From assembly GCF_988242995.1 (NCBI RefSeq), contig NZ_OZ547043.1: a DNA stretch of 64,000 bases; one strand, written 5' to 3'. Position numbers and translations under genes: made by a program. Below are positions 10,489-51,536 of this stretch, piece by piece (the stretch's first letter is position 1; each line of letters opens with the position of its first letter). Below the pieces are notes generated by a model, which was not told where the DNA came from, made no database searches, and was given only the letters and a program-made list of their open reading frames with translations.

Positions 10489-10884
10489 ATGTGTGAAGGA
10501 TATGTTGAAAAACCACTCTACTTGTTAATCGCCGAATGGATGATGGCTGAAAATCGGTGGGTGATAGCAAGAGAGATCTCTATTCATTTCGATATTGAAC
10601 ACAGCAAGGCGGTTAATACCCTGACTTATATTCTGTCGGAAGTCACAGAAATAAGCTGCGAAGTTAAGATGATCCCTAATAAGCTGGAAGGGCGGGGATG
10701 CCAGTGTCAGCGACTGGTTAAAGTGGTCGATATCGATGAGCAAATTTACGCGCGCCTGCGCAATAACAGTCGGGAAAAATTAGTCGGCGTAAGAAAGACG
10801 CCGCGTATTCCTGCCGTTCCGCTCACGGAACTTAACCGCGAGCAGAAGTGGCAGATGATGTTGTCAAAGAGTATGCGTCGTTAA
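10489..10884 (+). CDS. caiF: Carnitine-operon transcriptional activator CaiF, 131 aa
   Basis: ORF track starts at 10384, but the recognised CaiF sequence MCEGYVEKPLYLLIAEWMM begins at the internal ATG 10489. Confidence 0.85.
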   Translation: MCEGYVEKPLYLLIAEWMMAENRWVIAREISIHFDIEHSKAVNTLTYILSEVTEISCEVKMIPNKLEGRGCQCQRLVKVVDIDEQIYARLRNNSREKLVGVRKTPRIPAVPLTELNREQKWQMMLSKSMRR

Positions 10885-39686: not shown

Positions 39687-42038
39687 TCAAAATAGCCCAA
39701 GTTGCCCGGTCATAAGTGTAGCAAAATTATCCTCAATAAAAGGGAGTATTCCCTCCGCCACGGGTTGTAGCTGGCGGGTCAGATAGTGTTCGTAATCCAG
39801 TGGTGAACGTTGGTAGTCCAGAGGCTCCGGGCCGTTGGTGGTCCATACGTACTTAATGGTGCCGCGGTTCTGATATTGCAAGGGGCGACCGCGCTTTTGG
39901 TTTTCTTCATCGGCAAGGCGAGCGGCGCGTACATGAGGCGGAACATTACGCTGATATTCGCTCAGCGGACGGCGAAGGCGTTTACGGTAAACCAGCCGCG
40001 CATCCAGTTCACCCGCCATCAGTTTGTCGATGGTTTCGCGGACGTACTCCTGATATGGCTCGTTGCGGAAGATACGCAGGTAAAGCTCCTGCTGAAACTG
40101 CTGGGCCAGCGGCGTCCAGTCGGTGCGTACGGTTTCCAGCCCTTTAAACACCATCCGCTGCTTATCGCCCTCCTGAATCAGCCCGGCATAACGCTTTTTA
40201 CTGCCGGTATCGGCTCCGCGAATGGTTGGCATCAGAAAACGGCAGAAATGGGTTTCATACTCCAATTCTAATGCGCTGGTCAGCCGTTGTTTTTGCAGCG
40301 TTTCCGCCCACCAGGCGTTAACGTGCTGCACCAGTGCACGACCGATTTTCGCCGCTTCTTCTTCCGAATGTGCGCCTTTCAGCCAGACAAACGTTGAGTC
40401 GGTATCGCCGTAGATCACGTCGTAGCCCTGCGCTTCAATCAACGCTTTGGTTTGCCGCATGATCTGATGACCACGCATGGTGATCGACGATGCCAGGCGC
40501 GGATCGAAGAAGCGGCAGGCGGTGGTGCCGAGCACGCCATAAAAGGCATTCATAATGATCTTCAGCGCCTGCGAAAGCGGCTTATTACCCTGACGTTTGG
40601 CTTCATCGCGCCCGTGCCAGATGTTAGTCACAATCTCCGGCAGGCAATGTTTCTCCCGCGAGAACCAGGCATCGAGAAAACCTTCGGTGCTGTGCTCTGG
40701 ATCAGGCTGCGCCATGCCTTCCACCAGCCCGACGGGATCAATCAGAAAGGTGCGGATGATCGACGGGTACAGGCTTTTGTAGTCCAGCACCAGTACCGAA
40801 TCATAAAGCCCTGGCCGCGAATCCATCACATAGCCGCCAGGGCTGGCGTGTGGCGGCACTTCGCCGAGATTAGGCGCGACATAACCAGCGCGATGCATTC
40901 GCGGAAAATAGAGATGACCAAACGCTGCCACTGAACCGCCGTGCCGATCCACCGGCAGGCCGTTCACCGTCGCCCGTTCGAGTAAAAACGGCATGATTTC
41001 AGTTTTGTGGAAGATCTGCGTCACCAGCTCGCAATCTTTCAGGTTATAAGTTGCCAGCGCAGGTTTATCTTCGGCGAAACGGCGGTCAATTTCGTCCATC
41101 CGATCCCACGGGTTATCGATAGATTTTCCTTCGCCTAATAACTCCTGAGCGACGGTTTCCAGCGAGAATGAAGAGAAATTCCAGAACGCGGATTTCAGCG
41201 CCTCGATACCGTCGATAATTAGCCGCCCTTTGGCCTGGGCAAAAAAGACGCCGTTTTTAAAGCCGTGCTCGCGCCACTCCAGCTCGCTGTTATCGCGCCC
41301 CAGCCGCAGCGGAATACGATAACGCTCGGCATGTTTTTGCAGCATTCGTAGATCGAATTGCACCACGTTCCAGCCGATGATCACATCAGGATCGTAGTTG
41401 GCAAACCAGGCGTTGAGTTTTTCCAGTAGCTGCGGGCGGCTGGCGACGTACTCCAGTTCGAAATCGAGCGCGGAGGCGTCGCCATTCTCTGGCCCCAGCA
41501 TATAAACGATGCGCTGCCCGCAACCTTCCAGGCCGATGCAGTACAGCTCACCGTGGCGGGTGGTTTCAATATCAATAGAAACCCACTTGAGCGGCGGACG
41601 GTAGTCGGGATGCGGTTTCAGACGGGCATTAACGATAGCGCCATTGCGTATATCACCCTCGACCCACACCGGTGAGGTGATAAACCGCTCCATCAGATAG
41701 CGTTCTGGCGGGCGCACATCGGCCTCGTAGATGATAACGCCACCTTCACGCAGGCGCTTTTCGTAATTCATCAACTGGCGATGGGCGCGACAGTAAAGGC
41801 CATACACCGGTTGGCGGTGAAAATCTTTTAACGCCAGCGGCGTCAAGCGAAAGCCTTGTTCACCCTGCAAAATATGCTGAGCGCGGGGAACCTGATCGGC
41901 GGGAATAAAGGCCACGGACTCTTGCGGCGCAAGCGTAACCTGCAACGGCCCGTTGTCCGTCGCCAGCCAGAAGGAGACTTCTGTCCCTTGCGGGGTGTCC
42001 CGCCAGTGTCGGGTTAAGATAAAACCTGCCTGCGCCAC
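39687..42038 (-). CDS. polB: DNA polymerase II (B-family), 783 aa
   Basis: 783-aa ORF with exonuclease and B-family polymerase motifs (YGDTDS). Confidence 0.95.
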
Positions 42039-42050
42039 GTTGAAAATCCA

Positions 42051-42081
42051 ATAAAAAACCAGGCTTGATTATAGCCTGGTT
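42051..42081 (-). terminator. Rho-independent terminator downstream of araD (minus-strand sense)
   Basis: Minus-strand RNA aaccaggcu-auaauca-agccugguu followed by UUUUU. Confidence 0.65.
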
Positions 42082-42093
42082 TCGTTTGATTGG

Positions 42094-42109
42094 CTGTGGT
42101 TTTATACAG
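42094..42109. promoter_or_regulatory. LexA (SOS) box upstream of polB
   Basis: Minus-strand CTGTATAAAACCACAG fits CTGT-N8-ACAG and matches the polB/dinA SOS box as I remember it. Confidence 0.75.
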
Positions 42110-42112
42110 TCA

Positions 42113-50577: not shown

Positions 50578-51536
50578 TCGCTAATCCATGCCTGACGTTG
50601 TGCCGCCACTTCGGCTGGCGTGAACTCCAGCGTGGTTGCCGGTTTGGTCAATTGTTCAAAACCGGCAGGCAGCGTGACGTTTGCCACCGGATACATCCAG
50701 TTGCCGGTTGGGATCGCATTCTGAAAAGCCGGAGAAACCATAAACTGGAGGAATTTTTGCGCCAGCTCTGGCTGCTTGCTGGCAGCGGTGCGGGCGGCGA
50801 CTTCCACTTGCAAATAGTGACCTTCGCTGAAGTTCGCGGCGGCGTAGTTATCTTTCTTCTCTTCGAGAATGTGATAAGCCGGAGAGGTGGTGTAACTCAG
50901 TACCAGATCGCTTTCACCTTTTAAAAACAGGCCGTAGGCTTCGCTCCAGCCTTTGGTGACCGTGACCGTTTTCTTCGCCAGTTTCTGCCAGGCTTGTGGG
51001 GCGTCATCGCCATAGACTTTTTGCATCCACAACAGCAGACCCAGTCCCGGCGTGCTGGTGCGCGGATCCTGATAAATCACCCGCCAGTTTTGATCGCTTT
51101 CAACCAGCTCTTTCAGGCTTTGCGGCGGATTTTTCAGTTTGTTCTTGTCATAGACGAAGGCGAAATAGCCGTAATCAAACGGGACGAAAGTGTCATTATT
51201 CCAGCCGCCGGAAACGTTAACGGCATCCGCTGCCACACCGCTTTTGGCAAATAGTCCGGTTTTACTGGCGGCATCTAACAGGTTGTTATCCAGCCCCAGC
51301 ACCACATCGGCTTTACTGTTTTTGCCTTCCATCCGCAGACGGTTGAGCAGCGAAACGCCATCTTCCAGCGCCACCAGTTTCAGTTCGCAGTTACAGTCGG
51401 CTTCAAAAGCTTTTTTGATCTTTGGACCAGGCCCCCAGTCGGCGGCGAAGGAATCGTAGGTATAAACAGTCAGAACGGGTTTAGCGAAAACGGGCGCTGT
51501 GCACAGCAACAGCAGGGGAAGACATTTTTTTAACAC
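50553..51536 (-). CDS. thiB: Thiamine-binding periplasmic protein ThiB (TbpA), about 327 aa
   Basis: Periplasmic binding-protein ORF with signal peptide; probable GTG start giving (M)LKKCLPLLLLCTAPVFA, preceded by SD gaggtg. Confidence 0.92.
   Translation of the reverse strand: MLKKCLPLLLLCTAPVFAKPVLTVYTYDSFAADWGPGPKIKKAFEADCNCELKLVALEDGVSLLNRLRMEGKNSKADVVLGLDNNLLDAASKTGLFAKSGVAADAVNVSGGWNNDTFVPFDYGYFAFVYDKNKLKNPPQSLKELVESDQNWRVIYQDPRTSTPGLGLLLWMQKVYGDDAPQAWQKLAKKTVTVTKGWSEAYGLFLKGESDLVLSYTTSPAYHILEEKKDNYAAANFSEGHYLQVEVAARTAASKQPELAQKFLQFMVSPAFQNAIPTGNWMYPVANVTLPAGFEQLTKPATTLEFTPAEVAAQRQAWISEWQRAVSR

Follow-up and report, generated by a model that had tools for sequence, protein, structure and literature searches.

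How can polB have an SOS-controlled promoter of its own when only 74 bp separate it from araD, and when the same 74 bp hold what appears to be the terminator of the arabinose operon? A description made from the DNA letters alone, which we call the sequence-only reading, had noted a LexA box and a hairpin with a U-run in this gap, and had argued that polB transcripts from that box would have to begin inside or just past the hairpin. We examined the gap by folding, by comparison across Enterobacterales, and against published transcription start sites (TSS).

The araD-polB gap and its LexA operator

The window, by which we mean the whole stretch of 64,000 nucleotides that was analysed, is E. coli chromosome: its segment 41800-42400 matched 5,400 of 5,426 complete E. 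coli genomes, in which it is annotated as araD and polB. The alignment with MG1655 was free of gaps, and an MG1655 coordinate equals the window coordinate plus 23742; araD is b0061 there, polB is b0060, and the gap between them is 65781-65854. On the minus strand the genes follow one another as araB, araA, araD (42808-42113), polB (GTG at 42038; 783 aa) and rapA/hepA. Read along that strand, the LexA operator comes first and then, after a spacer of 10 nt, the inverted repeat; TTATT and a short U-rich leader precede the polB GTG (Table 1). This layout of box, hairpin and U-run in 74 bp is the one that had been described beforehand, with two corrections: the minimum-energy stem has 11 pairs rather than 9 bp, and the distance from box to hairpin is 10 nt rather than about 13 bp.

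Table 1. Features of the araD-polB gap and its borders, in window coordinates and in the order in which the minus strand is read.
Feature	Position	Strand	Basis and remarks
araD stop codon, TAA	42113..42115	-	Sequence; annotated araD
LexA operator, 20 bp, GACTGTATAAAACCACAGCC	42092..42111	-	Sequence, pattern count and conservation; -50 to -31 relative to the polB TSS
Putative weak -35, CAGCCA	42091..42096	-	Placed from the positions of the -10 and the TSS; 3/6 matches, 17-bp spacer, under the LexA site
Hairpin of the predicted araBAD intrinsic terminator	42055..42083	-	Folding, conservation
polB -10 hexamer, TATAAT	42068..42073	-	First T closes the stem, remainder in the loop; conserved; TSS 7 nt downstream
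polB TSS (T)	42061	-	MG1655 65803; fifth base of the 3' arm; Kim 2012 and SMRT-Cappable-seq
polB 5' UTR, 23 nt, UGGUUUUUUAUUGGAUUUUCAAC	42039..42061	-	Weak GGA Shine-Dalgarno-like motif; unstructured
U-tract, TTTTTTATT	42050..42058	-	Sequence; predicted araBAD 3' ends; overlaps polB +4 to +12
polB GTG start codon	42036..42038	-	Sequence; MG1655 annotation

Compared with the K-12 allele, 3 of the 74 gap positions differ, all of them outside the stem: one lies in the -10 hexamer, which is the consensus TATAAT in the window and TATACT in K-12, and two lie in the leader (42052-42053 and 42040). The genes, the 74-bp gap, the LexA box, the stem and the TSS position are all equal to those of the K-12 polB (dinA) SOS promoter/operator in MG1655. 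At least 1,867 of 5,361 complete E. coli genomes carry the window allele at 99% identity or more, and the K-12 allele belongs to a larger band of 95-99%. With the C that precedes it, the K-12 hexamer reads CTATACT, a sigma-S-like -10; RpoS dependence of polB is cited by a review. What lies in the gap is the known polB/dinA SOS promoter of a well-studied locus, and neither a new kind of element nor a new mechanism. Sequence papers of 1990, by Iwasaki et al. and by Chen et al., are said to have already described the LexA site over the -35 and the hairpin over the -10. Our literature searches on the polB promoter, or on polB with the araD terminator or TSS, returned nothing relevant.

The core of the LexA box, CTG-N10-CAG, reads CTGTATAAAACCACAG at 42109-42094 of the minus strand and begins 4 nt past the araD stop. 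The sequence-only reading had called this a near-consensus SOS box, and the call was sound: the sequence is present as described, and its CTGTA...CAG core is invariant across the 57 species aligned below. Matches to CTGT-N8-ACAG numbered three in the 64-kb window versus 0.56 expected, and only the polB match has an AT-rich spacer. The other two (window 10633-10648 and 51497-51512) have GC-rich spacers and are probably due to chance. The LexA consensus is TACTGTATATATATACAGTA, with which the polB site, compared by eye, agrees at 13 of 20 positions. A LexA operator is expected to be a CTG-N10-CAG palindrome with an AT-rich centre, to overlap a promoter and to be conserved in orthologous promoters, and all of these were found. 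UV induces polB promoter reporters, and in the literature the SOS regulons of both E. coli and Salmonella include polB, a canonical LexA target. SOS promoters of the recA type likewise have one CTG-N10-CAG operator inside the promoter, where it blocks RNA polymerase. The placement differs: in recA the box lies between the -35 and the -10, whereas in polB of Enterobacteriaceae it lies at -50 to -31, over the -35.

Hairpin, -10 hexamer and polB start site

The inverted repeat reads GAAACCAGGCT / ATAATCA / AGCCTGGTTTT (42083-42055), with a 5' arm at 42083-42073, a 7-nt loop at 42072-42066 and a 3' arm at 42065-42055, and its onset is 30 nt past the araD TAA. Nine Watson-Crick pairs, a U-A closing pair and a basal G-U pair make up the stem. 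A hairpin that proved unstable on folding would have counted against the sequence-only reading. Folded alone, it reached -16.2 kcal/mol (z = -5.6), and the whole gap reached -21.8 kcal/mol (z = -5.1), values that 0 of 200 shuffles equalled in either case. These z-scores, with the conservation of the repeat, rule out an inverted repeat that arose by chance. A REP element was also ruled out; some species carry REP-like inserts at other places in the gap, and the hairpin is unchanged there.

Downstream of the araD stop and co-directional with it, a stable GC-rich stem-loop is followed by UUUUUUAUU, as expected of an intrinsic terminator. A GC-rich stem, a 7-nt loop, a U-tract on the 3' side and an A-run on the 5' side are shared with canonical Rho-independent terminators that have an upstream A-tract. 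Unlike canonical terminators of bidirectional appearance, this one has no convergent gene that needs the reverse orientation, and its loop is under constraint to remain a -10 hexamer. The araBAD sequence paper of 1986 reportedly noted a structure past araD that resembles a terminator. On the plus strand (window 42056-42082) the inverted repeat scores as terminator-like, with the tail CGTTTGATTG; no convergent gene is present.

A scan for consensus promoters and terminators listed the hairpin on the plus strand only and no terminator on the minus strand, because the G-T-extended stem uses up part of the T-run there; we treat this as a technical miss and not as a sign that a terminator is lacking. 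Rfam gave no match at the gathering score. Its best candidate, C0465 on the plus strand (19 bits and E = 0.85, against a gathering score of 40), is a sub-threshold match that overlaps the inverted repeat. The Term-seq tables of Adams 2021 contain no araD 3' end, probably because the cultures were grown without arabinose, conditions under which araBAD is not induced.

Beyond what had been described from the letters, the loop of the hairpin holds a perfect -10 hexamer. From this position a start is expected about 7 nt downstream, near 42061 and within the 3' arm, and two datasets place the polB TSS there. In Table S1 of Kim et al. 2012 (PMC3415461) polB has a minus-strand TSS at NC_000913 65803, supported by only 2 reads and leaving a 5' UTR of 23 nt; the 51-nt string upstream of it, which opens with GACTGTATAAAACC and closes with ...CAAGCCT, starts exactly at the 20-bp LexA operator. 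SMRT-Cappable-seq (Yan et al. 2018, PMC6131387) lists an operon of b0060 alone with its TSS at 65803 on the reverse strand and "same" in the comparison column. The chemistry of that method differs from that of Kim 2012, and the two give 65803 independently.

Relative to this start the hexamer occupies -12 to -7, the spacing of a sigma-70 -10 from its TSS. At the 16-18 bp expected of a sigma-70 promoter we found no proper -35, the best candidate being CAGCCA with 3/6 matches; this falls below the 4-of-6 rule of the consensus scan, which is why the scan calls no polB promoter. A weak -35 of this kind fits a repressor-overlapped -35 that is compensated by a strong -10.

Since transcription begins at 42061, the polB mRNA lacks the 5' arm and therefore cannot form the terminator; its 5' end, without the 5' arm and loop, reads UGGUUUUUU... 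/ UGGUUUUUUAUUGG... The sequence-only reading had called for a fold of the predicted leader, and folding from 42061 onwards predicts no pairing in the first 26 nt (z = +1.2). A TGAGA/TGGGA block upstream of the polB GTG is conserved in the species alignment. On the start site itself, then, the location that the reading proposed is correct, the start lying in the 3' arm in both datasets. Its wording that the start "would have to" fall there goes too far, because logic does not require the start to be inside the hairpin, as the alternative seen at frd/ampC shows.

At that locus, too, an operon's terminator and the promoter of the co-directional gene that follows are packed into a very short region (Grundstrom and Jaurin 1982, as cited in PMC6045580). 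The ampC promoter lies inside frdD, and its start is upstream of the complete terminator, which all ampC transcripts must read through. In contrast, polB starts inside the hairpin and its transcripts never contain the terminator. An arrangement of the ampC kind would mean that the key polB transcripts begin upstream of the whole hairpin, from a weak start within araD or as araBAD read-through, and that the hairpin is a leader terminator which sets the level of polB. The precedent that the frd terminator is the ampC attenuator (PMC6045580) speaks for this, and so does a second polB-assigned TSS of Kim 2012 (PMC3415461), also of 2 reads, at 65946 (window 42204), which lies within araD and would give a 166-nt UTR. 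This minor start is the only one that would lie upstream of the complete hairpin, and the start at 42061 does not. However, SMRT-Cappable-seq has only 65803 for b0060 and, among the rows consulted, none for 42204, and only poor hexamers were seen, by eye, upstream of 42204. The -10 7 nt before 65803, by contrast, is invariant in the 57 species as TATA[A/C]T, and a LexA box downstream of the start would be a mere roadblock. Transcripts that start upstream of the complete hairpin and read through it were the observation that would have spoken against the sequence-only reading; with the TSS inside the hairpin that objection falls, and we regard an attenuator of polB as very unlikely.

Comparison across Enterobacterales

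A scan of one genome per species yielded 80 polB loci from Enterobacterales, of which 56 were aligned with the window (57 sequences), with an upstream region that is nearly gap-free. Invariant in all 57, which are Enterobacteriaceae, were CTGTA.A.A...CAG, TATA[A/C]T, two bases of the GTG and the spacing from box to hexamer, and the flanks varied. The -10 was TATAAT in 46 sequences and TATACT in 11.

The column-wise covariation score (0.131 vs 0.138 in shuffles, not significant) was uninformative because an alternative stem found in one clade is shifted by one register, and we therefore folded each sequence separately with the helix constrained to enclose the -10, grouped the sequences by upstream context and set a hairpin cut-off of -11 kcal/mol. 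Where araD was the upstream neighbour (gaps of 73-346 bp, REP-like inserts in some), 35/36 sequences had a hairpin of -11 kcal/mol or lower (median -15.3), versus 4/20 (median -4.7) where araD was 700 bp or more away or absent. This difference gave p = 2e-8 in a Mann-Whitney test and p = 2e-9 in a Fisher test, both of which ignore phylogeny. Taken together, the comparison suggests that the stem behaves as a terminator feature linked to araD, and the box and loop hexamer as promoter features linked to polB.

The alternative stem occurs in Buttiauxella and some Cedecea-like species, where a different and fully complementary pair of arms, AAGTGGTC...GACCACTT, surrounds the same TATAAT. In this clade GTGGTC/GACCAC replaces CCAGGC/GCCTGG, and 4 of the 6 core pairs are changed on both sides; we count this as one clade-level event.

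Several lineages have lost the hairpin or are losing it. In Salmonella and several Citrobacter a divergent DUF4751 gene lies in the gap, and the 3' arm is lost or eroding with the box and TATAAT kept; polB of Salmonella, its 3' arm lost, is still counted as an SOS gene in the literature. The polB loci of Erwinia, Pantoea, Serratia and Yersinia (L055-L081, about 2920-2995) lack both an upstream araD and the hairpin. The first three of these genera have a LexA-like box, CTGTATAAAyAnnCAT (with CAT, not CAG), that abuts the -10 directly, a placement that is like that in the recA promoter and differs from that of Enterobacteriaceae polB. Pluralibacter gergoviae (L027) has araD adjacent and has lost the canonical hairpin; an alternative stem of -17.1 kcal/mol (2911-2985), with no U-run, extends there from just past the LexA box to the polB GTG.

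Inserted genes and repeats provide further cases. A co-directional DUF218-type gene lies between araD and polB, with the hairpin lost, in L013, L021, L028 and L037; these losses, like that in L027, speak against a terminator role of the stem. A co-directional insert of the DUF218 family (2339-2947; Pfam was checked for this locus only) is present with the hairpin kept in L043, and co-directional inserts with the hairpin kept also occur in L033 and L036. The DUF218-type frame crosses the polB LexA box and stops just past it in L013, L028, L037 and L043, and stops before the box in L021. REP-like or other palindromic elements lie between the araD stop and the LexA box in L019, L020, L026, L030, L031, L035 and L041 (gap 118-346 bp), and the hairpin-promoter module is unchanged in each. 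In E. coli EC42405 (L082, 360-440 and 1690-1850) a 1.4-kb insert with three reverse-strand genes, one annotated SMI1/KNR4, parts araD from polB; araD has gained a different hairpin with a T-run, and the hairpin of polB is intact, with the variant CTGTACAAAATATCAG as its box.

We also asked what these patterns say about a role for the inverted repeat as DNA, in which it would act on the polB promoter and not primarily as a terminator of araD, for example by a supercoiling-dependent extrusion of a cruciform that exposes or hides the -10. The 11-bp arms flank the -10 exactly, and the repeat persists with araD about 1 kb or more away in L033, L036 and E. coli EC42405, as such a role would predict. 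However, the stem has decayed in 16/20 lineages without an adjoining araD, with box and -10 intact, and polB is still an SOS gene in Salmonella. A GC-rich stem with a T-run downstream is moreover the signature of an RNA terminator, and in L033, L036 and L043 the newly adjoining genes run in the same direction as polB and would need one as well. Together these observations leave a DNA-level role of the repeat highly improbable.

Proposed mechanism and its meaning

We put the probability at roughly 85% that the araD-polB spacer acts as a composite control region, with one inverted repeat that carries two signals and a terminator that insulates polB. RNA from the araBAD promoter would fold into the GC-rich hairpin with its U-tract, which would end araBAD transcripts near 42050-42058, about 8-12 nt beyond the polB start, and stabilise them. 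In the DNA, the loop of this repeat is the polB -10, and RNA polymerase starts at T42061 in the descending arm, as both TSS datasets show. The polB mRNA then carries only the 3' arm and the U-run, with no terminator and with a short leader that folding predicts to be unstructured. LexA bound upstream would hide the weak -35, block the binding of polymerase and repress polB until DNA is damaged, and the terminator would shield the SOS-controlled polB from strong transcription driven by arabinose, where the gap is probably too short for separate elements. The observation from which we set out is confirmed, and its interpretation of the TSS is supported and sharpened to a -10 in the loop and a start at 42061. 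The SMRT-Cappable-seq table (PMC6131387) lists no araBAD-polB cotranscript between 63356 and 70077, in work in which araBAD was barely expressed.

The same geometry means that araBAD polymerases, which would end at +4 to +12 of polB, have to pass over its LexA operator, -35 and -10 on the way. Arabinose might in this way alter the expression of Pol II, through eviction of LexA, occlusion of the promoter, read-through of the terminator, or re-initiation by polymerase retained after termination. The geometry alone, and literature on the re-use of RNA polymerase after termination, speak for such coupling; we found no expression data for it, no cotranscript is listed in the SMRT-Cappable-seq table, and the loss of the hairpin in many lineages means that no coupling is obligatory. 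We give little credence to arabinose control of polB by these routes. The bolder proposal that the overlap is itself a coupling device, which releases araBAD polymerases on the polB promoter after they have swept LexA off its operator, strikes us as very unlikely. If coupling did occur, heavy arabinose catabolism would transiently raise Pol II (by re-initiation, LexA eviction or read-through) or lower it (by occlusion), independently of damage, and the TATAAT and TATACT alleles, or engineered ara deletions with the araBAD promoter moved nearer to this site, would alter it.

With the terminator insulating polB as proposed, the gap is an example of how a terminator and a repressible promoter can be packed into 74 bp, one repeat acting as an RNA hairpin for the upstream transcripts and its loop as the -10 of the next gene. 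The frd/ampC arrangement, with its start upstream of the terminator, is the opposite solution and yields an attenuator. For annotation, the locus shows two signals that are both missed by simple consensus scanners, and for strain engineering it means that deletions in ara, or edits at the araD 3' end, can affect the operator, promoter or insulator of polB. Across the family, the species pattern amounts to a natural dissection of the element, in which the stem is retained with an adjacent araD and otherwise decays, and the box and the -10 are invariant.
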